A stretch of DNA of 37,002 nucleotides from a virus (Duplodnaviria > Heunggongvirae > Uroviricota > Caudoviricetes), in IMG/VR virus record IMGVR_UViG_2565956731_000001; one strand, 5' to 3'. Below, one piece after another: positions 3,721 to 34,382 of the stretch. A program made the position numbers and the translations under genes. Below the pieces are notes generated by a model. That model was not told the DNA's origin. It worked only from the letters and a program-made list of their open reading frames with translations, and did not search any database. Numbering within the stretch: position 1 is the first letter of the stretch; each line of letters opens with the position of its first letter.

Positions 3721-3948
3721 ATGGCTGATGCAATGGATCTCGTACAGCAGCGCGTTGAAGAAGAACGCCAACGCCATATCCGTGCTGCCCGTGCCAAAAC
3801 GCCGGGCGTGTCCCGCGTGCTTTGCATTGATTGTGAAGCGCCAATTCCGCCAGCACGCCGCCGTGCCATTCCGGGTGTGCAGCTTTGCATTACCTGCCAG
3901 GAAATCGCAGAGCTGAAAGGCAAACATTACAACGGAGGTGCTGTATGA
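3721..3948 (+). CDS. TraR/DksA-type zinc-finger protein (P2 orf82-like)
   Basis: CxxC...CxxC pairs (CIDC, CITC) in a 75-aa protein; AGGAG RBS. Confidence 0.6.
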   Translation: MADAMDLVQQRVEEERQRHIRAARAKTPGVSRVLCIDCEAPIPPARRRAIPGVQLCITCQEIAELKGKHYNGGAV

Positions 3949-4802
3949 GCACCATCCTGAAATGGGCGGGAAATAAAACTGCCATAATGTCCGAACTGAA
4001 AAAACATCTTCCTGCTGGCCCGCGACTGGTTGAACCTTTCGCGGGTTCCTGTGCTGTGATGATGGAGACGGATTATCCCAGCTATCTGGTTGCGGATATT
4101 AATCCTGATTTAATCAACCTCTATAAAAAGGTTGCCGCTGATTGTGAATCGTTTATATCTCGCGCCAGAGTTTTATTTGAGATCGCAAACAGGGAGGTGG
4201 CTTATTACAACATAAGGCAGGAGTTTAATTACTCAACTGAAATTACTGATTTCATGAAAGCGGTATATTTCCTGTATCTCAATCGTCACGGTTACCGTGG
4301 TTTATGTCGCTATAACAAGAGCGGGCATTTCAACATTCCCTACGGTAATTATAAAAATCCGTATTTCCCTGAAAAAGAAATTCGCGCATTTGCAGAAAAG
4401 GCCCAGCGAGCAACGTTTATCTGCGCCAGCTTTGATGAAACGCTGGCGATGTTGAAGGCGGGGGATGTGGTGTATTGCGATCCGCCGTATGACGGTACGT
4501 TTTCCGGCTATCACACTGACGGCTTCACTGAAGATGACCAGTATCACCTAGCATCTGTTCTTGAACATCGGTCATCAGAAGGACATCCGGTCATTGTTTC
4601 TAACAGTGACACATCCCTGATCCGTTCGCTGTATCGCAATTTTACTCACCACTACATCAAGGCAAAACGGAGCATCGGTGTGGCAGCTGGCGAGGGTAAA
4701 TCAGCAACAGAAATCATTGCTGTTTCCGGGCCGCGCTGCTGGGTGGGATTTGATTATTCGCGTGGCGTGGATAGTTCTGCCGTGTACGGAGTACGTGCAT
4801 GA
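3945..4802 (+). CDS. DNA N6-adenine methyltransferase (Dam-like)
   Basis: DPPY catalytic motif and N-terminal AdoMet-binding region (LKWAGNK...EPFAGS); ATG 3945 with GGAGG RBS. Confidence 0.8.
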
Positions 4803-7213
4803 GTCATGCCGATATGAACAACTGCTGCGGCTTTAACGAAGCTGCCGCATCGTTCTCATGGAACAGCTCGAAAAAGGCCATTAACCCTTATCTGGACCCG
4901 GTGGAAGTTGCGCCGGTTTCTACGCTTTCAAACCTGATCACTCTGTACGCTGCCGATAACGAGCAGGAACAGCTGCGCCGTGAGGCGCTGAGTGATCAGG
5001 TCTGGGAGCGTTATTTCTTTAATGAATCCCGTGATCCTGTCCAGCGCGAAATGGAACAGGATAAGCTCATTAGTCGGGCAAAGCTGGCGCATGAGCAGCA
5101 GCGTTTTAATCCGGATATGGTCATTCTGGCGGACGTCAACGCCCAGCCTTCCCATATCAGCAAGCCGCTGATGCAACGTATTGAATACTTCAGCAGCCTG
5201 GGCAGGCCAAAGGCTTATTCCCGCTATTTACGTGAGACGATTAAGCCATGTCTGGAACGACTGGAGCATGTACGCGACAGTCAGCTATCTGCATCTTTTC
5301 GCTTTATGGCAAGCCATGAAGGGCTGGACGGCCTGCTGATCCTGCCTGAAATGAGTCAGGATCAGGTGAAACGCCTGTCCACCCTGGTAGCTGCGCATAT
5401 GAGTATGTGCCTTGATGCCGCTTGTGGCGATTTGTATGCCACCGATGACGTTAAGCCAGAAGAAATCCGCAATACATGGGAAAGGGTGGCAGCGGAAACC
5501 CTGCGTCTGGATGTCATCCCGCCTGCGTTTGAGCAACTCCGTCGGAAAAGAAACCGCCGTAAACCCGTGCCCTATGAACTCATTCCGGGTTCGCTGGCGC
5601 GTATGTTGTGCGCCGACTGGTGGTATCGGAAATTATGGAAGATGCGTTGCGAATGGCGGGAAGAGCAGTTGCGTGCTGTCTGCCTTGTCAGCAAAAAAGC
5701 ATCTCCCTATGTCAGCTATGAAGCCGTGTTGCATAAACGTGAGCAGCGCCGTAAGTCGCTGGAGTTTTTCCGTTCTCATGAACTGGTGAACGAAGACGGC
5801 GACACGCTAGACATGGAGGATGTGGTAAACGCCAGCAGCAGCAACCCTGCGCATCGCCGCAATGAGATGATGGCCTGTGTTAAAGGTCTGGAGCTTATCG
5901 CGGAAATGCGCGGTGACTGCGCCGTTTTCTACACCATCACCTGTCCGTCACGTTTCCATTCCACGCTAAATAACGGCAGGCCCAACCCGACCTGGACAAA
6001 TGCGACGGTAAGACAAAGCAGCGATTATCTGGTCGGTATGTTTGCTGCATTTCGTAAGGCGATGCACAAAGCCGGGTTGCGCTGGTATGGCGTGCGGGTG
6101 GCTGAGCCGCATCACGACGGCACAGTTCACTGGCACCTGTTGTGTTTCATGCGCAAAAAAGACCGCCGCGCCATTACAGCATTGTTGCGTAAGTTTGCTA
6201 TCCGTGAAGACCGCGAGGAGCTGGGCAATAACACGGGGCCGCGCTTTAAGTCTGAGCTGATTAACCCGCGCAAAGGAACGCCGACAAGCTACATAGCGAA
6301 ATACATCAGTAAGAACATTGATGGGCGTGGTCTGGCTGGCGAGATCAGCAAGGAAACGGGTAAATCTCTGCGTGATAACGCTGAATACGTGAATGCCTGG
6401 GCGTCTTTGCATCGTGTTCAGCAATTCCGCTTCTTTGGCATTCCGGGGCGTCAGGCTTACCGTGAACTGCGATTGCTGGCTGGTCAGGCGGCAAGGCAAA
6501 AGGGGGACAAAAAAGCAGGTGCGCCGGTACTGGATAACCCGCGCCTTGATGCCATCCTGGCTGCTGCTGATGCTGGTTGTTTTGCCACCTACATCATGAA
6601 GCAGGGCGGCGTACTGGTTCCCCGTAAATATCACCTCATCAGAACCGCTTATGAAATCAACGAAGAGCCGACCGCCTATGGCGATCACGGCATTCGTATT
6701 TATGGCATCTGGTCACCCATTGCAGAGGGCAAGATCTGCACTCATGCAGTGAAGTGGAAAATGGTTCGTAAAGCCGTTGACGTTCAGGAGGCGGCAGCCG
6801 ACCAGGGCGCTTGCGCCCCTTGGACTCGTGGCAATAACTGTCCCCTTGCTGAAAATTTGAACCAACAAGGGAAAGACAAATCAGCTGATGGGGATATCAG
6901 AACGGACATTACCCGCATGGATGACAAGGAGTTGCACGAATACCTGCACAGTATGAGCAAAAAAGAGCGCCGGGAACTGGCTGCAAGGTTACGCCTGGTG
7001 AAACCGAAACGGCGTAAAGACTACAAACAGCGAATTACAGACCATCAGCGACAGCAGCTCGTCTATGAACTGAAGTCCAGAGGATTTGATGGCAGCGAGA
7101 AAGAGGTCTATTTACTCCTTCGTGGCGGCAGTATTCCGTCAGGAGCAGGCCTGCGTATCTTCTATCGGAACCAGCGTTTGCAGGAAGATGATAAGTGGCG
7201 GAACCTGTATTAA
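4799..7213 (+). CDS. A: Replication initiation endonuclease gpA (rolling-circle initiator)
   Basis: 804 aa; conserved YIAKYISK active-site tyrosine region; position after the early operon. Confidence 0.9.
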
Positions 7214-7365: not shown

Positions 7366-7554
7366 ATGCAGGACTATTTTTTGGAGTCTTTGAAGCTCCA
7401 GCGCATTGATTTTTTTCTTAAGCTTGTAGCGGCTAGTGAGTGTAGTGATGAAGAGAAGGGGCTGGCTCTGCAGTGGGTATCTGAATTGACTGATGAACTC
7501 ATGGCAAAAATCAGAACCCACGAATACAACCGCTCAATGGATGTCATCAGTTGA
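7366..7554 (+). CDS. Small SOS-controlled protein (possible N-terminal part of a Tum-like antirepressor)
   Basis: ATG 7366 with AGGAGG RBS immediately downstream of the LexA box. Confidence 0.5.
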   Translation: MQDYFLESLKLQRIDFFLKLVAASECSDEEKGLALQWVSELTDELMAKIRTHEYNRSMDVIS

Positions 7555-7564
7555 GGTGACTTTT

Positions 7565-7798
7565 ATGCGCATTGAAATAATGATCGATAAAGAGCAGAAG
7601 ATTAGCCAGTCTACCCTGGACGCCCTTGAATCCGAGCTTTACCGCAATCTGCGCCCCCTGTATCCCAAAACGGTAATTCGCATTCGCAAAGGTAGCTCTA
7701 ACGGTGTGGAACTAACCGGACTGCAACTGGACGAAGAAAGAAAACAAGTGATGAAAATTATGCAGAAGGTGTGGGAAGACGACAGCTGGCTGCATTAA
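7565..7798 (+). CDS. DinI-family protein (Tum-like antirepressor domain / SOS modulator)
   Basis: Translation MRIEIMIDK...KVWEDDSWLH aligns by eye with E. coli DinI (MRIEV...QETWESADDWF); ATG 7565 after GAGGTGA. Confidence 0.65.
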   Translation: MRIEIMIDKEQKISQSTLDALESELYRNLRPLYPKTVIRIRKGSSNGVELTGLQLDEERKQVMKIMQKVWEDDSWLH

Positions 7799-7930: not shown

Positions 7931-7958
7931 AAGGCCCGCCAGAACTGGCGGGCTTTTG
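7931..7958 (+). terminator. Rho-independent terminator of the SOS module
   Basis: GC stem GCCCGCC(7934-7940)/GGCGGGC(7947-7953) followed by TTTT. Confidence 0.6.
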
Positions 7959-8002: not shown

Positions 8003-8021
8003 GGCGTGGCGGGGATACGAG
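8003..8021. other. Candidate cos site (19-nt cohesive-end sequence)
   Basis: GGCGTGGCGGGGATACGAG followed by CGCGCGCTGA resembles the P2 left end GGCGAGGCGGGGAAAGCAC TGCGCGCTGA as recalled from memory; lies between the A-side genes and Q as in P2. Confidence 0.45.
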
Positions 8022-8212
8022 CGCGCGCTGAAAAGGTTTAGCTAAATTTTTGTCGATAGGTGGTTTTAGTTGTTATACAAAAGTGTCACTGGTTTTGTTT
8101 TGAGCATTTGTGGTGCTAAAAATATTTTTTTTGGTTCAAAATTACCTTAAAAAGGTTTTTTTGGTGTATGATTGTTTGAAAAGTGGTTCGGTTTTGCCAT
8201 AAGGGTGGTTAG

Positions 8213-9295
8213 ATGATAAACGTTACAAACGAAATGCTCATTGATGTTGTCAGTGATGCTCTTACCGGGAAGAGGGAAAGTCTCCTCATGCGGTTGCGGA
8301 TTATGGCAAAAAAACTAAAAAAAGAATCTCCTGAATTAGCGGGTAAATTAGAAGATTTACTTATTAATACAGGTGGCGCAATTGCAGTCGAAAGGGCTAA
8401 TCCAGTTGTTCCTAAAATAACACCTGTTGATGCGGATACAAGACAAAAGCTGCTAGTTGAAACATATCCTGTGGTCATTGATGTTGAACCTGTTTGGCCA
8501 ACAAAAACTGATGTTCAACTGAATCGATTTGTGGCTGAGTGGGAAATGAAAGAACGCCTTTATAAAGAAGGGTTGCATCCGTCCAAATCTCTTCTTATGG
8601 GAGGACCACCCGGTGTGGGGAAGACTTTGGCTGCAAAGTGGCTCGCTTTTAAACTCGATATGCCATTGTTAACATTAGATCTCGCAAGTGTAATGAGTAG
8701 CTACTTGGGGAAAACGGGTAATAATATTAAGGCAGTCCTCAATTATGCTTCGTCATTCCCTTGTGTACTGCTTCTTGACGAATTTGATGCGATTGCTAAA
8801 AAAAGGGATGATGCAACAGATGTTGGAGAACTAAAAAGATTAGTTACAGTATTATTGCAAGCAATTGATGAATGGCCAAATACGTCTGTTCTTATAGCAG
8901 CAACTAACCATGCGGAGCTGCTTGATCCTGCTGCATGGAGAAGATTCGATCGAGTTATTGATTTTGAATATCCAACACAAGACCTAATGAGAAGATATCT
9001 CTGTTCTAAAAATATTGGAGATAGCTTATCGTACTATATTGCTACAAAACTCGAAAAAGTTTCATATGCAGTTCTTGAGAGAGCTATAAATCAAGCTAAA
9101 AGAAATGCCATTATAGAAGATATTCCTTTAAGTTCAGCTTTAATTGATGAGTTGTTAGATGGCGTGTCACTTGATGATGTTATAAAAAACATGTCAAACA
9201 ACAATGTATCACAAAGAAAAATCGCTTTAGATTTGGGGATTTCAAGGTCACAAGTACGTAAGGTTTTGACGGTTGAGGATGAAGACAATGAATGA
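8213..9295 (+). CDS. AAA+ ATPase (classic AAA clade), cargo gene
   Basis: Walker A GGPPGVGKT, Walker B LLLDEFD, sensor/Arg region ATNH...RRFD; AT-rich by eye; RBS AAGGGTGG before ATG. Confidence 0.85.
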   Translation: MINVTNEMLIDVVSDALTGKRESLLMRLRIMAKKLKKESPELAGKLEDLLINTGGAIAVERANPVVPKITPVDADTRQKLLVETYPVVIDVEPVWPTKTDVQLNRFVAEWEMKERLYKEGLHPSKSLLMGGPPGVGKTLAAKWLAFKLDMPLLTLDLASVMSSYLGKTGNNIKAVLNYASSFPCVLLLDEFDAIAKKRDDATDVGELKRLVTVLLQAIDEWPNTSVLIAATNHAELLDPAAWRRFDRVIDFEYPTQDLMRRYLCSKNIGDSLSYYIATKLEKVSYAVLERAINQAKRNAIIEDIPLSSALIDELLDGVSLDDVIKNMSNNNVSQRKIALDLGISRSQVRKVLTVEDEDNE

Positions 9296-11480
9296 TAAAA
9301 ATATGCTTCTTGGCTATGGTGAAACACTAACTAACCCTGTTAAACTTAACAGAGGTGGAGGTGAAAAGAATAAACCTTACTCTTATTCAGAAAATAAACC
9401 AGTGATATCTGCTCAACTGGAAGAGTTGATTGAGGAAATTAATACCCTTCCATTGTTAGCAATGCCTGAAGGTAAGGCTGTAGCAAAATTTGTTTTGCAT
9501 CCGGCATTCTTAGCAAAAAGTTATTTTCCAGTAAGTCTTTTTGAGCGATTTTCCCTAGAAAGCATAGGCAGTAAGGCTGTAAAAGTAAAACCTAGAAAAG
9601 ATATTAAAAAAAGAGGGCGAAAAGAGGAATACACTACAGCGTGTATTTATGTTTCTGGCAAAAAAGAAAGTTTTCAATCATTCTTAGACTCTGTAAATCA
9701 AGATACCCTAACGAAAGGGCAGCAAAATGATTTTGTCACCTTAGAAAATATTTCAATACTGGAAGTTTCAGATAAAGTAAAAACGATTAATAGCAATGAA
9801 GTTATGAGTATTGAGGTCGCCTTACATACTCCTGATACAATTTCCTCTATTGTCGATAGTTTTGAAGTTTTTGCTTCGCAAAATGGTGCTGTTATAGATA
9901 AGGCAAGAAGTATAAAGGTTAAGGGGCTAACCTTTATGCCTATTAAGGCTAGTAAAGATGTAGCTTTAAAAGTTGCAGAGTTTTCATTTCTCAGGACTTT
10001 GAGAGAACTTCCTGAATTAAGGCTAAGTGAGCCTGTTATATCACGTTCTGTGATTCAAACATCTAACCTTAGTTTACCATCTGAAGGAGCGGTAAACCCA
10101 CACATAAAGGTTGCCATATTCGATGGTGGATTGGGGATCGATGATTTCAATCCTTGGGTAACAGAGTACACTTTCAACGGTAATGCTAGTACTAATGCAA
10201 AACTTCTTTCTCATGGACAGGATGTCACCTCTACTGTGTTATTTGGTGTTCTTGGCTCTGAAACGGAAAAATTAAGTGTTCCTTATTGTAATATTGACCA
10301 TTATCGTGTACTGGATTCTAATGTTAATAACTCAGATGTCGATCTTTTTGACGTTCTGATCCGTATTAAAAGTGTATTAGAACAAAAAAAATATGATTAT
10401 ATCAATCTGAGCTTAGGACCTAGATTACCTGTTGATGACGATGACGTGCATGTGTGGACCTCAACTCTTGAGGAGATACTTGCATCAGGAGAAACACTTT
10501 GTACTGTCGCGGTTGGAAATGATGGTCAGCTGCCTGCCAAGTTAAATCGAATTCAACCACCTGCTGATTTAGTTAATGGTCTGTCAGTAGGTGCAGCAAC
10601 CTCTTTATCTGATAGTTGGGAAAGATGTTCTTACAGTTGTATTGGTCCTGGACGAAGCCCTGGCTTTGTGAAGCCTGATGGAGTTGCATTTGGAGGACAT
10701 TCTGATGAGCCATTCCAGGTATACAGCCCTATGGTTAATGGTCTTGCCCGCACTGCGGGGACTAGCTTTTCAGCTCCATTAGTCCTGAGGCAAGCAATCG
10801 CGTTAAGTGCTTCTCTAAATTACAACATTACACCACTTACGGCTAAAGCTCTGCTTATACATCATGCGGAGAGCAATAATATCAATCGTGCTGAAGTTGG
10901 TTGGGGACGATTTCCTCATGATCTTAGTGAAGTAATATTTTGTGATGATGATGAAGTTAAAGTTATATATCAAGGTACTTTAAAACCATCACAACACATG
11001 CGAGCACCTATTCCGTTTCCAGATGTACCTATGCGTGGATGTGTAAATTTAAGAGCGACATTCTGCTTTTCCAGTCCTGTAGATGCGGAACATCCTTTGA
11101 ATTATACAAGAAGCGGTCTAGAAGTAACCATGAGAAAAGGTGTTTCAGATAGTTCCGGGTTAACGTTTCCTCTTTTTAATCTAAAAAATGTTTATGCAGA
11201 TGAAAATGAGCAACGTGTTGATGCACATAAATGGGAGACTACGTTAAGAAGTGAACACAAATTTAAACCGAATGAGCTGACAAACCCATGCTTTGATATT
11301 ATCTACTATGGTAGAGACTGTGGTATGCCTATTGATGTTGACGAGTTAGAAGAACTACCATATGTTCTTGTCGTGACTTTATCTGCTGAAGAAATGCCGG
11401 ATTTATATAACCTAATTAGGCAGAAATATCAAACCTTACAGCCTATCCAAGTTCAACAGCAAATTATGTTACGTACTTAA
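9288..11480 (+). CDS. Subtilisin-like serine peptidase (S8 family) with N-terminal domain of unknown function, cargo gene
   Basis: Catalytic triad motifs in D-H-S order: VAIFDGGLG, SHGQDVTST, GTSFSAPLV; start overlaps the ATPase stop by 8 bp (alternative ATG 9279). Confidence 0.8.
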   Translation: MNDKNMLLGYGETLTNPVKLNRGGGEKNKPYSYSENKPVISAQLEELIEEINTLPLLAMPEGKAVAKFVLHPAFLAKSYFPVSLFERFSLESIGSKAVKVKPRKDIKKRGRKEEYTTACIYVSGKKESFQSFLDSVNQDTLTKGQQNDFVTLENISILEVSDKVKTINSNEVMSIEVALHTPDTISSIVDSFEVFASQNGAVIDKARSIKVKGLTFMPIKASKDVALKVAEFSFLRTLRELPELRLSEPVISRSVIQTSNLSLPSEGAVNPHIKVAIFDGGLGIDDFNPWVTEYTFNGNASTNAKLLSHGQDVTSTVLFGVLGSETEKLSVPYCNIDHYRVLDSNVNNSDVDLFDVLIRIKSVLEQKKYDYINLSLGPRLPVDDDDVHVWTSTLEEILASGETLCTVAVGNDGQLPAKLNRIQPPADLVNGLSVGAATSLSDSWERCSYSCIGPGRSPGFVKPDGVAFGGHSDEPFQVYSPMVNGLARTAGTSFSAPLVLRQAIALSASLNYNITPLTAKALLIHHAESNNINRAEVGWGRFPHDLSEVIFCDDDEVKVIYQGTLKPSQHMRAPIPFPDVPMRGCVNLRATFCFSSPVDAEHPLNYTRSGLEVTMRKGVSDSSGLTFPLFNLKNVYADENEQRVDAHKWETTLRSEHKFKPNELTNPCFDIIYYGRDCGMPIDVDELEELPYVLVVTLSAEEMPDLYNLIRQKYQTLQPIQVQQQIMLRT

Positions 11481-11487
11481 CAATGTG

Positions 11488-11510
11488 GAGGGGTTCCCCC
11501 TCCTTTATTA
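11488..11510. terminator. Bidirectional terminator between the cargo operon and Q
   Basis: GGAGGGG-TTC-CCCCTCC hairpin followed by TTTATT; flanked by convergent genes. Confidence 0.6.
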
Positions 11511-11518
11511 AGCTTTAT

Positions 11519-12568
11519 CTATGTTGATTGTGGGTCATCGTTTATTAAGTTATATTTTTCAAAATGGATAATATTAATTCCTAACCATTCATTAAATTCC
11601 TGTAATCGTTTTTGTAAAGGCATTAATTCATTTCGAACAAACACTCGACTCGCCTTCTCTACATCTCCAAATCCTCCAACATTACTTGGCATAATCCCCA
11701 TCATTTGCGGCGGCACACGGTGTGCCGCCATCATGTCGTCTCGGCTCACGTTCTTGATGTTCAGAAATTCATCCTTCGCTGCGACTTCTGACAGCGGGAT
11801 GATCTGAAGCCCGTCCTTTTTGCCGTTAGGCGAGTACATAAACAGGTTGCGGAAGTTGCCTGGACCTTTGGCGCTTTTCATCGCGTTGCGGAGGTTGTTC
11901 ACATCTTCCTGGTTCTGCGCGGCGTCGGTCATATACATGATGAAGCCAGCATGACTGCCGTTAATGTAATACTTTCGACGGAACAGCGTGGCGGACTCAT
12001 TGAGCAGGGCGGACGGAATGGCAGAAAGATAGCCGGGCAAGCCGTAGATCTCCTGGTTAATGTCCGGTTCCATCAGATGAAAAATGCTGCCTTTCGTGAA
12101 CTGATATGGCTGGGTTGTCATACCGTATTGCACAAACCAGTAGGTATCCAGGTCTAACCCGCGTCGGGTGTATTTTGCCAGCGCAGGCTCAAGGGCGATA
12201 ACTTCACCGAAGCGGTTCGTGCGTTTCTCCAGGTAGGCGTTACCAAAAACCAGATAGTCCTGCACAAAACGCGAAAAAGCCTGCTGGCTGAGCAGCGGGT
12301 GAGGGATGTAGGTGCTGGTCAAAATGTTGCATTTCACCGCAATCGGTGAGCTGTGATGCACGGCGGCGCGGAAGGTTCGTGCCAGTCCGTCAAAGCTGAC
12401 GGGCGGCTCATACCAGCGATCCATCTGTACGCATTCCACATAGTCCAGCAGTTCGCGGCGGTCCAGAACAGGAACGGGATCACCGAAGCTGAATGCTTCG
12501 GCTGAAGTCTGGCTTTTATGCTGGTTCTGGTTCGTCGACGCAGCGCGGTTCTTCTTACTCTTTCCCAT
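11519..12568 (-). CDS. Q: Portal protein gpQ
   Basis: About 349 aa, P2 Q-like length and position; first gene after cos, transcribed toward it; ATG 12566-12568 with GGAG upstream. Confidence 0.85.
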   Translation of the reverse strand: MGKSKKNRAASTNQNQHKSQTSAEAFSFGDPVPVLDRRELLDYVECVQMDRWYEPPVSFDGLARTFRAAVHHSSPIAVKCNILTSTYIPHPLLSQQAFSRFVQDYLVFGNAYLEKRTNRFGEVIALEPALAKYTRRGLDLDTYWFVQYGMTTQPYQFTKGSIFHLMEPDINQEIYGLPGYLSAIPSALLNESATLFRRKYYINGSHAGFIMYMTDAAQNQEDVNNLRNAMKSAKGPGNFRNLFMYSPNGKKDGLQIIPLSEVAAKDEFLNIKNVSRDDMMAAHRVPPQMMGIMPSNVGGFGDVEKASRVFVRNELMPLQKRLQEFNEWLGINIIHFEKYNLINDDPQST

Positions 12569-19855: not shown

Positions 19856-20290
19856 GTGGACGACTGGCTGAGTGCTTTGCTGGCGAATCTGGAACCAGCC
19901 GCAAGAAGCCGAATGATGCGCCAGCTGGCGCAGGAACTGCGCCGGACACAGCAGCAGAATATCAGGATGCAGCGCAATCCAGATGGCAGCAGTTATGAAC
20001 CGCGCAGGGTAACAGCACGCAGCAAGAAGGGGCGCATCAAACGTCAGATGTTTGCAAAGCTGCGCACCACCAAATACCTGAAAACCGCCGCCAGCGCCGA
20101 CTCTGCCAGCGTGCAGTTTGAAGGTAAGGTGCAGCGCATTGCGCGGGTTCACCATTACGGCCTGCGTGATCGCGTCAGTCGCAAAGGACCGGAGATCCGT
20201 TACGCAGAGCGCAAATTGTTGGGTTTCAGTTCAGTTTCAATAAACGTAGTCCATGATATTATATATTCGTGGATATCCAATTTAGATTGA
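19856..20290 (+). CDS. S: Tail completion protein gpS
   Basis: 144 aa in P2 S position; last ~20 codons lie in AT-rich sequence at the cargo junction. Confidence 0.75.
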   Translation: MDDWLSALLANLEPAARSRMMRQLAQELRRTQQQNIRMQRNPDGSSYEPRRVTARSKKGRIKRQMFAKLRTTKYLKTAASADSASVQFEGKVQRIARVHHYGLRDRVSRKGPEIRYAERKLLGFSSVSINVVHDIIYSWISNLD

Positions 20291-20297
20291 AAGTTTG

Positions 20298-20327
20298 AAA
20301 TGGCAGATGCTCTGCCATTTTTTTATT
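20298..20327. terminator. Bidirectional Rho-independent terminator between S and the cargo gene
   Basis: AATGGCAGA-TGC-TCTGCCATT hairpin with flanking A-run and T-run. Confidence 0.6.
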
Positions 20328-21079
20328 TAGATACTGAGATTTTTTTTACATAATAGTATAAATTCACAGTACATGTTATAGATTTTAGTCGCACATCCGT
20401 TAGCTTTTTTTATGGTTTCTATCTTTTCAGGGGGGAGGCTCAATAAGGCAATCTCTCTGTCGCTGAGCATTGAAATAAACTCGCTGCTGCCTAAATACCC
20501 GGAGTTGCAGGCTAAAAAATAATTAAAGTTAGTTAACTCTTTGTGTAGTTCGTTAGATTTTATTTCTATTTCATTATCATGAAAATGATGTATGGCCTTT
20601 CCCCATTCATGGCAGTATGTTGTCATGTCTTTAAGGTTTGAGTCATGAAATCTATTGCCAAAGTCATGGCTTTTTAGAAAGTCTATTGAGTTTGAATCTG
20701 GTGGTAATAATTTTATAAACTCTTTATATAGATTAATGTCAGAGTTCCTTTGTCTTTCTTTCTTTTCTCTGTTTTCTTTAATTTTAATACTGTCAAAGAA
20801 CCATTCTGGCACTTTACTTAATAAGTTATAGGTTAACCCCAAAGCAATTAGAGTGATGGCTACCATCGTGCTTGGATTACCATTATCTATTTTTATTATA
20901 TCAATATCTGCATTGAATTTTTTATTATATATATCAATTATAAAATTAAGTGCCATGAGATAATATGGAATTGGTAGCGCAATTATGCTTAGCCCAGTTA
21001 TAACTAAAGCCCAAGTTATTTTATTACTAAACTCAGGAAATATTACATTGATTATTTTTTTAACAATATACTTTTTCAT
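20327..21079 (-). CDS. Membrane protein of unknown function, cargo at the S/V (P2 orf30-equivalent) locus
   Basis: 250 aa, very AT-rich by eye; two N-terminal TM helices; K/E/N/D-rich C-terminal soluble domain; antisense to flanking late genes. Confidence 0.7.
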   Translation of the reverse strand: MKKYIVKKIINVIFPEFSNKITWALVITGLSIIALPIPYYLMALNFIIDIYNKKFNADIDIIKIDNGNPSTMVAITLIALGLTYNLLSKVPEWFFDSIKIKENREKKERQRNSDINLYKEFIKLLPPDSNSIDFLKSHDFGNRFHDSNLKDMTTYCHEWGKAIHHFHDNEIEIKSNELHKELTNFNYFLACNSGYLGSSEFISMLSDREIALLSLPPEKIETIKKANGCATKIYNMYCEFILLCKKNLSI

Positions 21080-21107
21080 TACTTAACTCCCTGAAAAATA
21101 TCCTAAT

Positions 21108-21125
21108 TGTGCCATGATTCATACA
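21108..21125. promoter_or_regulatory. Ogr-type late promoter dyad (TGT-N12-ACA) upstream of V
   Basis: TGTGCCATGATTCATACA about 50 bp upstream of the V start. Confidence 0.5.
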
Positions 21126-21171
21126 TTTTTATCTACTGGTTGATAATGTGTGGGGGATTTATGTTAGTGAC

Positions 21172-25028: not shown

Positions 25029-25481
25029 GTGATTTATATGAACGAATATGTTTATAGCGCAAGGCATAATGCTTTTTTCCCTGTGGATATGATTGATAAA
25101 TATAAATCAGAGGGATGGGATTTATCAGACGCAAAGGAAGTAAATCAAAATATTATCAGTGAGTTTATGGCTGAACCGCCACAAGGAAAAATCCGTATTG
25201 CCGGAGATGATGGGCTGCCTGCGTGGGCAGATATTCCTCCACCCACGCATGAAGAGCTTATTGAAATTACTGAATCAGAAAAACAGCTACTAATTAACCA
25301 GGCTAACGAATACATGAACAGTAAGCAATGGCCTGGCAAAGCAGCTATTGGTCGTCTGAAAGGTGAGGAACTGGCGCAATATAATTTGTGGCTGGATTAC
25401 CTGGACGCACTGGAACTGGTGGATACCTCCAGTGCTCCAGATATTGAATGGCCTACACCTCCGGTAACTCAGGCCAGCTAA
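25029..25481 (+). CDS. Tail fibre assembly chaperone (Tfa, expressed orientation)
   Basis: 150 aa immediately after H; N-terminus MIYMNEY... typical of Tfa/gpG. Confidence 0.75.
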   Translation: MIYMNEYVYSARHNAFFPVDMIDKYKSEGWDLSDAKEVNQNIISEFMAEPPQGKIRIAGDDGLPAWADIPPPTHEELIEITESEKQLLINQANEYMNSKQWPGKAAIGRLKGEELAQYNLWLDYLDALELVDTSSAPDIEWPTPPVTQAS

Positions 25482-25848
25482 TCTCAGGAGCCGTCGAAGT
25501 GTCGACGGCTTTTACTTCTTTTTTGTAGTCCATCCAGGCAGATAGTTTTTCTTTATCTGTACTGCTGATATCACCAAGCATTAATTCCACCCGCCAGTCA
25601 GCTGTGACATTATCGGCATGAGCAAGTAACTGCATTCGCTGATTTTCAGCACGTGCGACATAATCAATCGCCGGAGATTTCAGTACCGGTAAACCATTTT
25701 CATCTGACGTGATTAATTTACCCCCTTCCTGCTGTCCGGCAATTAATTCATTGTATAAGTCTGTACTTATCTCAACAATGTCAGCAGGCATGTCGCTGTT
25801 TATACCATCAAAGAAAAAACCATTAGTCGATTTTGAGAAATAAATCAT
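25453..25848 (-). CDS. Alternative tail fibre assembly chaperone (silent orientation)
   Basis: Minus-strand ORF with Tfa-like N-terminus MIYFSKSTNGFF; convergent with and overlapping the expressed tfa. Confidence 0.65.
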   Translation of the reverse strand: MIYFSKSTNGFFFDGINSDMPADIVEISTDLYNELIAGQQEGGKLITSDENGLPVLKSPAIDYVARAENQRMQLLAHADNVTADWRVELMLGDISSTDKEKLSAWMDYKKEVKAVDTSTAPEISWPELPEV

Positions 25849-25856
25849 AGATATAC

Positions 25857-26190
25857 CTATACACCGATTGCTACCCAAAAACAGGACCTTTCATATTTGA
25901 CAATTTCTCCCTGAGATATACCGCCAACAATTATATAGAACTGTGATTTGCTGATATCAGAACAGTTCGCTATGCCCATTGCAGATATACCAGCCACCGA
26001 CGTTGTATGTGGCACAGCCAACAGCGCAAGTGAACGATTTGGGAATGTTACCGGGTAAGTCACCGTATAGTTTGATGCTCCACTGACAATACCCCACTGA
26101 ATAATCAGACCTGAAGGAAGTTTTTGAAAACCCGTTGATGAAAGTGAACTGGCAAACGCCGCCATATCCGGAATTTGGTTTTGCCCGTTA
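25857..26190 (-). CDS. Alternative tail-fibre C-terminal coding segment (silent cassette, no own start)
   Basis: Minus-strand frame begins with [19 protein letters not shown] matching the H crossover region, then diverges. Confidence 0.65.
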
Positions 26191-26224
26191 CCTACATTCC
26201 GTTTTGCCGCTTCTCCCAAACCAA
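26191..26224. repeat. Right inverted repeat of the invertible segment
   Basis: Perfect reverse complement of 24644-24677. Confidence 0.8.
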
Positions 26225-26291
26225 CGTTTATGAAAATGCAGAGATAATGGCTAACTGGCATCATCCCCGGTTTTTATTCAGGGGGATGATC

Positions 26292-26858
26292 ATGCTTATT
26301 GGCTATGTACGCGTGTCAACAAATGACCAGAACACCGATTTGCAACGTAATGCACTGAACTGCGCGGGATGTGAGCGGATTTTTGAGGACAAAATCAGTG
26401 GCACAAAGTCCGACAGACCAGGGCTGAAAAAACTGCTCAGGACACTAACGGCAGGAGACACTCTGGTTGTCTGGAAGCTGGACAGGTTGGGGCGCAGTAT
26501 GCGGCATCTTGTTACGCTGATAGAAGAGTTGCGCCAGCGTGGTGTGAATTTCCGAAGCCTGACTGACAGTATTGATACCAGTACCCCAATGGGCCGTTTC
26601 TTTTTTCATGTCATGGGTGCCCTGGCTGAAATGGAACGCGAACTGATAGTTGAACGTACCAGGGCGGGGCTGGCTGCAGCTCGTGCTAAAGGCAGAGTAG
26701 GTGGACGCCGTCCTAAGTTGACCACCGAACAGTGGGCACAGATTGGACGTTTACTCGAGGCCGGAGAATCAAGACAGCGTATTGCACTGATTTTTGATGT
26801 GGGTGTTTCCACAATTTATAGAAAATTTCCGGCAAATAAGAGCAATGAATCCCCCTGA
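26292..26858 (+). CDS. Serine-recombinase DNA invertase (Pin/Gin/Hin/Cin family)
   Basis: N-terminus MLIGYVRVSTNDQ with catalytic Ser; C-terminal HTH; aligns by eye with e14 Pin; ATG 26292 after AGGGGGATG; directly adjacent to the invertible segment. Confidence 0.9.
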   Translation: MLIGYVRVSTNDQNTDLQRNALNCAGCERIFEDKISGTKSDRPGLKKLLRTLTAGDTLVVWKLDRLGRSMRHLVTLIEELRQRGVNFRSLTDSIDTSTPMGRFFFHVMGALAEMERELIVERTRAGLAAARAKGRVGGRRPKLTTEQWAQIGRLLEAGESRQRIALIFDVGVSTIYRKFPANKSNESP

Positions 26859-34170: not shown

Positions 34171-34382
34171 CGTTAAAAAACAGTGCTTCTAACATCATGA
34201 TTTTAAACAGCTTAAATTTCAGGCAACAAAAAACCCATCAACCTTGAACCGAAATGGCGGGGTTGATGGGCTCCACAAAATGGGGACATCAAAGAAAAGC
34301 AGTGGCACTAATTAAGACTGATGCCCTGCGGAAAAGTTCTGCGGTTGTGCAAAAAAATTTCATTTTCAGGGCAACTTCAGTT

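Follow-up and report, generated by a model that had tools for sequence, protein, structure and literature searches.

A probable IetAS cassette next to cos in the gpA-gpQ hotspot of a P2/186-like prophage

Described IetAS systems

The iet genes were named on the Agrobacterium plasmid pTiC58 as a toxin-antitoxin pair (Yamamoto et al. 2009, J Bacteriol, as summarized in PMC5006074 and PMC13069673), and according to the same summaries pTiC58 IetAS was found as a stability and incompatibility determinant. In the plasmid sequence, retrieved by accession, ietAS occupies positions 97873-101373. A related pair, SgiA/SgiT (S026/S025), combines an AAA antitoxin with a subtilase toxin on Salmonella genomic island 1 (SGI1), an integrative mobile element; both roles were shown by experiment, and SgiAT promotes island maintenance (PMC5006074). 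An anti-phage ietAS was described by Gao et al. (2020, Science), and its protease active site was reported as required, in the account of that work given in PMC13069673. An abortive-infection phenotype and a phage-gene trigger have been shown for the Bacillus cereus IetAS only (Stokar-Avihail et al., bioRxiv 10.1101/2022.08.27.505566). In the ietHAS system (Liu-DS4; NAR 2026, PMC13069673), the protease is needed for defence and mutation of ietA is not tolerated. Work on relatives also reports that cloning of an ietA mutant failed. In E. coli, IetAS is mostly prophage-borne, and the system from ECOR52 gave limited protection when alone. Finally, Rousset et al. (2022, Cell Host Microbe, PMC9122126, Tables S5A/S5B) labelled an AAA plus S8 pair "ietAS" at the gpA-gpQ hotspot, where it is the seventh commonest system, with 400 occurrences. 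Our literature search found neither a dedicated paper on the mechanism of IetAS, the biochemical mechanism of the family being unpublished, nor an experiment on the allele or clade described below.

Family assignment of the ATPase-peptidase pair

The window analysed here is the whole 37,002-nucleotide stretch of IMG/VR virus record IMGVR_UViG_2565956731_000001, in which an earlier note, made from the sequence alone, had singled out two genes at 8213-11480 as a candidate anti-phage system. As that note had described, the genes are consecutive, co-directional and translationally coupled: ietA (8213-9295, + strand) encodes a 360-aa AAA+ ATPase of the classical clade, and ietS (9288-11480, + strand) encodes a 730-aa S8 subtilase predicted to be cytoplasmic. 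The ATG of ietS overlaps the stop of ietA by 8 bp, with a GAGGA sequence 9 nt upstream of the ietS start, and translation from a TTG at 9273 would extend IetS to 735 aa. The RefSeq annotation of E. coli 600468 contains the identical two genes (WP_001513123 and WP_001513122) with the ATG start for ietS and the same overlap. At 38% GC, open frames of 360 or 730 codons would arise by chance with probabilities of only about 2e-11 or 2e-22.

Very likely, in our view, this pair is an intact IetAS cassette that a P2/186-like prophage carries as accessory cargo in its gpA-gpQ hotspot, close to cos. The PADLOC IetA profile PDLC02196 matched IetA with an E value of 6.7e-84, aligning residues 7-355 with positions 5-371 of its 374, and the IetS profile PDLC02197 matched IetS with an E value of 4.9e-48 (residues 25-617); three more IetA profiles and five more IetS profiles matched the respective proteins, some of the latter extending to residue 717. 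Pfam placed the two proteins in AAA (E 5e-30) and Peptidase_S8 (E 3e-17). The resemblance to IetA/IetS that the earlier note had pointed out is thus borne out by profile search, while the name it gave to the system, "Ietswaart", returned only an unrelated author surname in our literature search, iet deriving from pTiC58. The gene order is that of IetAS (PADLOC ietAS, DefenseFinder Gao_Iet), with the AAA gene upstream of and adjacent to the S8 gene, and the ATPase motifs and the Asp/His/Ser triad are intact. Among NCBIfam models, the top matches were IteA (E 2e-73) and IteS (E 4e-35), at 247.7 bits against a cut-off of 510 for IteA_antiphage and 121.3 against 900 for IteS_antiphage. Scores below these equivalog cut-offs indicate, at the level of sequence profiles, a subfamily different from the one modelled, rather than exclusion from the broad IetAS family, and they explain why RefSeq gives only the generic product names 'AAA family ATPase' and 'S8 family peptidase'. 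The TRIP13/Cap6 ATPase associated with CBASS was considered separately and rejected, as matches to TRIP13 profiles were weak (E 3e-12) and far below those to IetA; no HORMA or cyclase gene was found between cos and Q. Searches of PDB sequences retrieved no solved IetA or IetS structure.

Among the described systems, the pair has in common with the ietAS of Rousset et al. (2022) the hotspot, the gene order, the overlap, and the combination of an AAA protein bearing a helix-turn-helix (HTH) tail with an S8 protein of about 730 aa. The representative pair of that study, the common allele, is only 47% identical in IetA and 37% identical over the first 399 aa of IetS; a further difference is that our cassette is located between cos and Q. 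In pTiC58, an AAA ATPase gene is likewise followed directly by an S8 peptidase gene, and both pairs match the PADLOC IetA/IetS profiles. The two IetA proteins share 40% identity over the AAA core (162 aa, E 4e-43), although pTiC58 IetA (328 aa) is without the HTH tail. By BLASTP, IetS had no significant match to pTiC58 IetS (E 0.04), and the two are linked only via shared PADLOC IetS profiles, with pTiC58 IetS (836 aa) matching best a different profile from that preferred by our IetS. A tblastn search of plasmids with IetS did not retrieve pTiC58; the two IetS proteins are too divergent for BLAST. Toxin-antitoxin or abortive-infection behaviour of the present pair is therefore extrapolated across deep divergence. 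The pTiC58 pair resides on a plasmid, the present one in a prophage, and the characterisation of the former concerned stability rather than defence. SgiA and SgiT, at 50% and 36% identity to the pTiC58 proteins, are closer to that pair and reside on a genomic island, not in a prophage hotspot. The anti-phage ietAS of Gao et al. (as far as that report was accessible) and its B. cereus homologue have the same two-gene ATPase plus S8 architecture, but the cut-offs discussed above separate our pair from the subfamily of the NCBIfam models. The ietHAS system shares the IetA and IetS modules but requires a third gene, ietH, for an SNF2-type helicase, and no such gene lies between cos and Q here.

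Position, distribution and cargo status

The left landmark of the hotspot is the gpA-type replication endonuclease gene (4799-7213, + strand), an 804-aa ORF annotated 'replication endonuclease' in near-identical prophages, and the right landmark is the portal gene (11519-12568, − strand), the homologue of P2 Q and 186 W, annotated 'phage portal protein'. Within this interval, a 62-aa hypothetical ORF (7366-7554) precedes a dinI-family gene (7565-7798, + strand), both being conserved backbone. The cos sequence, of the 186 type, was placed at 8003-8021 (GGCGTGGCGGGGATACGAG) by reading the sequence and aligning it with the annotated cos sites of phages 186 and P2, in which the GCGCGC just after it is also conserved; the literal P2 cos 19-mer had no match with up to 3 mismatches allowed. 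The cassette extends over 8029-11510, and the insertion between cos and the portal gene claimed at the outset agrees with these positions, but the corresponding gap in P2 measures 167 bp (bases 20-186) and not the roughly 100 bp then quoted. The claim that terminators flank the operon held on one side: a GC-rich hairpin followed by TTTATT lies after ietS (11487-11503, + strand; consensus scan, fold of -13.5 kcal/mol), while the upstream structure is a terminator for dinI, beyond cos as seen from the cassette. The latter, a terminator-like hairpin with TTTT 3' of dinI (7934-7957, + strand; strong hairpin at 7934-7953), was read by eye, folds at -23.4 kcal/mol (z -4.9), and was not reported by the consensus terminator scan.

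The locus had been called a known variable region of P2-like phages, and it is indeed the published gpA-gpQ defence hotspot, with WP_001513123 and WP_001513122 themselves entered for it in Table S5A (PMC9122126). The novelty implied earlier is accordingly lost, since the system type, the hotspot and these protein accessions are already known. What the cassette illustrates is that cargo in 186-like phages can occupy the portal side of cos.

Of 5426 complete E. coli genomes, 11 contained this allele and 1366 the left flanking backbone, and backbone matches break at about 8028-8037. The cassette recurs at 99.9% identity in prophages that differ in integrase and attachment site; a 69%-identical copy follows cos in a Serratia P2-like prophage, and a Yersinia integrative element with an integrase and a Prim-Pol gene carries 79%-identical DNA from 8128 to exactly 11480. 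Phage vB_EcoM-813R9 has a different gene in the same cos-Q slot. None of 50,697 phage records matched the cassette by megablast, and the protein-level phage search yielded only relatives of 30-40% identity (Enterobacter phage phiT5282H, a Pseudomonas Pf phage and Paenibacillus phages). The GC content of the pair is 38.2%, against 51.8% for the remaining window and 55.8% for the head genes, confirming the AT-richness remarked on earlier; the cassette is cargo whose composition is foreign to the backbone.

These data bear on whether the pair might serve phage morphogenesis, for instance as a prohead protease, or be a housekeeping ATPase-protease of the host, for instance a machine like Clp, Lon or FtsH. 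AAA+ ATPases of the IetA clade do partner proteases in proteasomes and FtsH, but the genes are absent from P2, from 186 and from more than 1000 related prophages sharing the backbone, a GPO scaffold/protease gene is already present in the prophage, the protease of the pair is a subtilase and not a ClpP, Lon, HslV or FtsH metalloprotease domain, and the foreign composition also argues against it. We regard this explanation as refuted by the distribution and extremely improbable, in line with the earlier view that the operon serves no morphogenetic function. FtsH, ClpX and HslU models scored far below their cut-offs.

The cargo has an AT-rich leader (8029-8212, + strand), delimited by homology breakpoints: homology to other P2/186-like phages ends at about 8028, and homology to the Yersinia copy begins at 8128-8139. 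A candidate -10 element, TATGAT, lies at 8167-8172 and a Shine-Dalgarno sequence, GGTGG, at 8204-8208; a three-way alignment shows TGGTGTAyrAT and GGTGG preserved in copies with 69-79% DNA identity. A sigma-70 scan of the + strand upstream of ietA reported no promoter site, and the promoter in this leader is inferred only. When the leader was searched for repeats, a 9-nt sequence in two copies and a weak palindrome were all that appeared, and thus no convincing operator. The lack of a detected consensus promoter, together with an ietA nonsense mutation in one of the 11 E. coli copies and the limited activity of a related E. coli IetAS on its own, could be taken to mean that the cassette has no present function in this host and is carried as a silent or decaying passenger. 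We find this very unlikely, given that both frames are intact here and in 10 of 11 genomes (99.7-99.9% identity), that every catalytic residue is conserved, and that the -10-like element and the Shine-Dalgarno sequence persist in the diverged copies.

Another possibility is that the main role of the pair is addiction, stabilising the prophage or the hotspot cargo through post-segregational killing, with defence at most a side effect. The discovery of the family as a stability and incompatibility determinant on pTiC58, as far as the available summaries describe it, the maintenance of SGI1 by SgiAT (PMC5006074) and the carriage of the cassette by several integrative elements are consistent with such a role. 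However, the slot has been published as a hotspot for defence genes, and protection against phage is on record for IetAS homologues; furthermore, a prophage that is integrated is inherited with the chromosome, and addiction would pay only in the rare event of excision. As the main function we consider addiction rather unlikely, although the two roles are not mutually exclusive.

Predicted proteins and working model

In IetA, Walker A (G131PPGVGKT, with K137), Walker B (V185LLLDE, with D189/E190), sensor-1 N232 and the R243-R244 pair (RRFD) are invariant in an alignment of 32-33 sequences, as is G166 of the pore loop Y164-L165-G166, in agreement with the intact Walker A/B and arginine-finger motifs listed before. 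That list had left out the C-terminal HTH (about 320-358). The AlphaFold model (pLDDT 80) shows an AAA fold in which an N-terminal three-helix bundle and a disordered linker carrying a conserved PVDxDTRQ motif are followed by the AAA core, the lid and the HTH; the nearest folds are p97 D2, proteasomal Rpt/PAN and FtsH. IetA is predicted to be a classical AAA+ unfoldase of the hexamer type, its pore loop being intact.

In IetS, D279, H309, N411 and S493 follow the subtilase order and are invariant in 36 homologues, so that the complete triad noted at first stands; about 190 aa follow the S8 domain, fewer than the estimated 230. The predicted structure, a subtilase fold (pLDDT 83, pTM 0.86), suggests a subtilisin-propeptide-like domain in the N-terminal region, a catalytic domain and a C-terminal beta-jelly-roll domain, with fold matches to ProN-Tk-SP, KP-43, the prodomain chains of PCSK9 and Alp1, and GOLD-like jelly rolls. 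IetS would thus be a cytoplasmic enzyme built like a pro-protease. A secreted subtilase was considered and rejected, as neither a signal peptide nor a membrane segment was found.

The preferred reading, drawn by analogy, is that IetS is likely a protease toxin restrained by active IetA and freed by a phage cue. In this model the two genes are expressed from a single transcript with translational coupling, as shown by the overlap, the internal Shine-Dalgarno and the single downstream terminator, and the HTH tail of IetA probably autoregulates the operon. Judging from relatives only (pTiC58 IetAS, SGI1 SgiAT and ietHAS), active IetA would keep IetS harmless; this published work casts IetA as an antitoxin restraining the protease, in place of the target-sensing or target-unfolding ATPase proposed earlier. 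During infection, a phage protein or its effect may upset the control of IetS, and the released protease would cleave cellular or phage proteins, so that growth would stop before phage release, that is, abortive infection. The prophage would gain by excluding competing phages, and toxin-antitoxin logic could also penalise its loss.

A well-delimited example could serve work on the biochemical mechanism and substrates of IetAS. The locus is useful material in this respect: it offers an intact, compact IetAS with defined cassette borders, natural variants are at hand (the ietA nonsense allele and the copies in a second prophage backbone and in the Yersinia integrative element), and the predicted pro-protease-like IetS and unfoldase-type IetA with its HTH tail point to concrete mutants.

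A different arrangement can also be conceived, in which the clade with HTH-bearing IetA and pro-subtilase-like IetS is not a classical toxin-antitoxin system. IetS would then be a zymogen that inhibits itself, and the IetA unfoldase would act on its propeptide-like domain only once a phage cue has arrived, possibly via the conserved, disordered PVDxDTRQ motif, making IetA an activator or gatekeeper and not a constitutive antitoxin. We hold this to be distinctly unlikely; were it true, a defence family with an unpublished mode of action would gain its first mechanistic handle.

One natural allele touches both arrangements. E. coli EC102 carries a stop at Arg247 of ietA together with an intact ietS, and the strain is viable. 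This fits poorly with an indispensable antitoxin, unless the loss of translational coupling silences ietS, and it would be consistent with IetS being a zymogen activated by IetA.

Reading frames and family assignment of the ietA-ietS pair

The ORF scan of the window located ietA at 8213-9295 (+), encoding a 360-aa protein, followed by an ietS frame that ends at 11480 and whose ATG at 9288 overlaps the ietA stop by 8 bp. In RefSeq, E. coli 600468 carries the same two genes with the same overlap, annotated as 'AAA family ATPase' (WP_001513123.1) and 'S8 family peptidase' (WP_001513122.1), which confirms the two coupled genes described in the earlier note. Such open frames would arise by chance at 38% GC with probabilities of about 2e-11 (ietA) and 2e-22 (ietS), and both reading frames are real. 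The pair is AT-rich, as had been stated, with a GC content of 38.2% versus 55.8% in the adjacent head genes and 51.8% over the remainder of the window. Pfam matches were obtained to AAA for IetA (E 5e-30) and to Peptidase_S8 for IetS (E 3e-17). The intact Walker motifs and complete Asp/His/Ser triad claimed previously were located in the proteins: IetA bears Walker A (G131PPGVGKT), Walker B (VLLLDE, D189/E190), sensor-1 N232, and an R243-R244 pair, while D279, H309, oxyanion N411, and S493 of IetS were invariant in 36/36 homologues with identities down to 42%. IetA also contains a pore loop of the aromatic-hydrophobic-Gly type (Y164-L165-G166), in which G166 is invariant, L165 invariant or nearly so, and position 164 occupied by Y, F, or L in alignments of 32-33 homologues. 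On sequence grounds, the pair is organized as one translationally coupled operon; its two products, an ATPase and a protease, are both predicted to be competent and cytoplasmic.

The resemblance to IetA/IetS suggested in the earlier note was borne out by profile searches. The PADLOC IetA profile matched the ATPase over its full length (E 6.7e-84), and the IetS profile matched the protease (E 4.9e-48), as did five more IetS profiles. The best NCBIfam matches were IteA_antiphage (E 2e-73) and IteS_antiphage (E 4e-35), with scores far below the equivalog cut-offs (247.7 vs. 510 bits and 121.3 vs. 900 bits, respectively), and PHROGs contained full-length families with no assigned function for both proteins. 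The name 'Ietswaart' proposed for the system was wrong; in the literature searched, it occurs solely as the surname of authors of unrelated papers, and ietA/ietS were named on the Agrobacterium plasmid pTiC58, where, as Yamamoto 2009 is summarized in PMC5006074 and PMC13069673, the subtilase acts as the toxin and the AAA ATPase as the antitoxin. The pTiC58 pair was situated at 97873-101373 on the fetched plasmid. Over the AAA core, its IetA shares 40% identity with ours (E 4e-43), and it has no counterpart of the C-terminal helix-turn-helix tail present in our protein. The two IetS proteins both match PADLOC IetS profiles, whereas their pairwise similarity was not significant (E 0.04), so the protease partner is highly divergent among the systems grouped under the name IetAS. 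Assignment of the pair to IetAS is based on its ATPase, on the arrangement of the two genes, and on the profile-level similarity of the subtilase.

Genomic context and mobility of the cassette

The window corresponds to a P2/186-like prophage whose left part carries, in this order, genes for an integrase, the CI repressor, CII, and a Dam methylase, followed by the replication endonuclease gpA (4799-7213), a 62-aa ORF, dinI (7565-7798), and the ietA-ietS pair. The portal gene Q and then the terminase gene P follow on the opposite strand, with head, lysis, and tail genes beyond. The methylase (3885-4802, +), just upstream of gpA, is a Dam-type orphan DNA adenine methylase (PADLOC oMTase, E 3e-111), ordinary in 186-like phages. 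The cos site, GGCGTGGCGGGGATACGAG (8003-8021), can be aligned to the cohesive ends annotated in phages 186 and P2, and the GCGCGC directly 3' of it is also conserved. The distance from cos to the end of the portal gene is 167-176 bp in P2 and 186 versus approximately 3.5 kb in the window; the pair was thus correctly placed between cos and Q. Of the terminators said to flank the operon, the downstream one stands, since consensus scanning and folding identified a GC-rich hairpin followed by TTTATT on the + strand, 7 bp past the ietS stop. The upstream one does not: a strong hairpin at 7934-7953 (-23.4 kcal/mol), probably the one taken for it, lies after dinI on the far side of cos. ietS and the portal gene are 38 bp apart (11481-11518). 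This gap contains one hairpin with a T-run after it on the + strand only, and no obvious counterpart there of tQ/tW, the intrinsic terminators annotated after Q/W in P2 and 186, was found.

Of 5426 complete E. coli genomes, 1366 contained the 8.2 kb lying left of the pair, with backbone matches ending at 8027-8037, a few bases past cos. Comparison with phage records revealed the identical break at 8028; phage vB_EcoM-813R9, for example, is identical to the window until that position and then bears an unrelated gene ahead of the portal gene. The pair itself occurred in 11 of the 5426 genomes (99.7-99.9% identity), and this sparse distribution indicates that it is not a constant feature of P2-like phages at this site, a constancy that would have spoken against the anti-phage proposal. 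A morphogenetic or housekeeping role is ruled out by this distribution together with the prophage's own GPO scaffold/protease gene.

The cassette is shared by prophages differing in integrase, immunity region, and attachment site: the prophage adjoins ssrA in strain 600468 and rybB/ybjL in E. coli EC102 and in the window. The ssrA-adjoining prophage of 600468, with its nearly identical cassette, lies beside an anti-phage dCTP deaminase gene. At the right end of the prophage in the window, the RybB sRNA (34225-34303, -; Rfam 105 bits) comes just past ogr and before ybjL and ybjM, which places the prophage between rcdA and rybB. A Yersinia pseudotuberculosis copy, 79% identical, spans window 8128-8139 to exactly 11480. 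It was found in three sequences (L010, L011, and L012; 4852-8193 of L010), in a non-P2 integrative element that encodes an integrase as well as a Prim-Pol/PriCT_2/DUF927 primase and may be a P4-like satellite, suggesting movement of the cassette between hotspots of the P2 and satellite types. A Serratia copy, 69% identical, is likewise preceded by a gpA gene and a cos-like stretch. On this basis, the mobile unit corresponds to roughly 8130-11480.

Upstream of ietA, the window, Yersinia, and Serratia copies have in common a GGTGG ribosome-binding site and the element TGGTGTAyrAT, which includes a -10-like TATGAT at 8167-8172. The consensus promoter scan upstream of ietA found none, and the putative promoter at this TATGAT is proposed from the three-copy conservation. 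That the pair is merely a decaying passenger is unlikely, as both frames are intact, the catalytic residues invariant, and the expression signals conserved.

Rousset et al. 2022 (PMC9122126) defined the interval between gpA and Q by cos as a hotspot for defence genes in P2-like phages of E. coli, and a 2026 survey again named it the main P2 defence hotspot. Table S5B of the former annotates the combination 'Peptidase_S8 | AAA', numbered system 7 and counted 400 times, as 'ietAS (Gao et al, 2020)'. Table S5A includes WP_001513123 and WP_001513122 and thereby records the locus studied here. The representative pair tabulated for ietAS is another allele, collinear throughout (IetA 47% identical to ours, IetS 37% over the first 399 residues). 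The analysis confirms the observation and supports its interpretation, while the system, the hotspot, and the specific allele are already on record and not new. The remaining value lies in a well-delimited example for mechanistic work, from an IetAS clade for which no experiments turned up in our literature search.

Predicted IetA structure and proposed mechanism

PDB sequence searches found no solved structure of IetA or IetS. The IetA model (pLDDT 80) comprises a three-helix bundle (6-57), a disordered linker (54-75), the AAA core and lid, and a C-terminal helix-turn-helix (approximately 320-358). The linker is variable and of low confidence except for its end, the conserved P71-V-D-x-D75-T-R77-Q-x-L80 (window 8423-8452), in which P71, D75, R77, and L80 are invariant across 32 homologues; through this motif, IetA might contact IetS or offer it a pseudo-substrate. 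In both sequence and fold, IetA comes closest to p97/Cdc48 D2, the proteasomal Rpt/PAN ATPases, and FtsH, each of them a substrate-threading unfoldase.

According to the account in PMC5006074, IetS-type subtilases are toxic and neutralized by IetA-type ATPases in pTiC58 and in SgiAT of SGI1. For ietHAS (PMC13069673), the protease was needed for defence and a mutated ietA was not clonable, from which the authors infer that active IetA is the antitoxin. A Bacillus cereus IetAS shows the behaviour of an abortive-infection system and becomes toxic once the SPbeta gene yosG is expressed (bioRxiv 10.1101/2022.08.27.505566). E. coli IetAS is largely prophage-borne, and the cloned ECOR52 copy alone gave limited protection and showed synergy with Zorya II. 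[quoted passage not shown] We infer a scheme in which IetA would spend ATP holding a pro-protease-like IetS inactive, its helix-turn-helix tail would autoregulate the operon, and infection would break this control, allowing IetS proteolysis to arrest the cell. An addiction module for the prophage is also plausible and compatible with defence.

The EC102 allele (NZ_CP196706) calls for caution with this scheme and offers a natural test of IetA as an indispensable antitoxin. Its ietA has one difference from the window, CGA to TGA (Arg247 to stop, equivalent to window 8951-8953), which ends the protein downstream of its RRFD motif; the intact ietS does not differ from that of the window. Either ietS falls silent once translational coupling is lost, or IetS at its native level lacks constitutive toxicity; the viability of EC102 may be explained by the former.

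Other candidate variable loci in the prophage

A 250-aa ORF of approximately 30% GC (20327-21079, -; within 20213-21171) is inserted between the S-like virion-morphogenesis gene and the baseplate gene V, a position equivalent to the P2 orf30 variable locus. It had no Pfam, PADLOC, or PHROGs match, and 20 of 5426 E. coli genomes carry it in this position, labelled 'hypothetical protein'. The two closest prophages with IetAS lack the ORF, which may represent a second cargo gene. Finally, the region 25029-26858 looks like an invertible tail-fibre segment, with tail-fibre assembly genes in opposite orientation (25029-25481, +, and 25453-25878, -) adjoining a resolvase-type DNA invertase gene (26175-26858; Resolvase, E 5e-53) that is a pseudogene in EC102.
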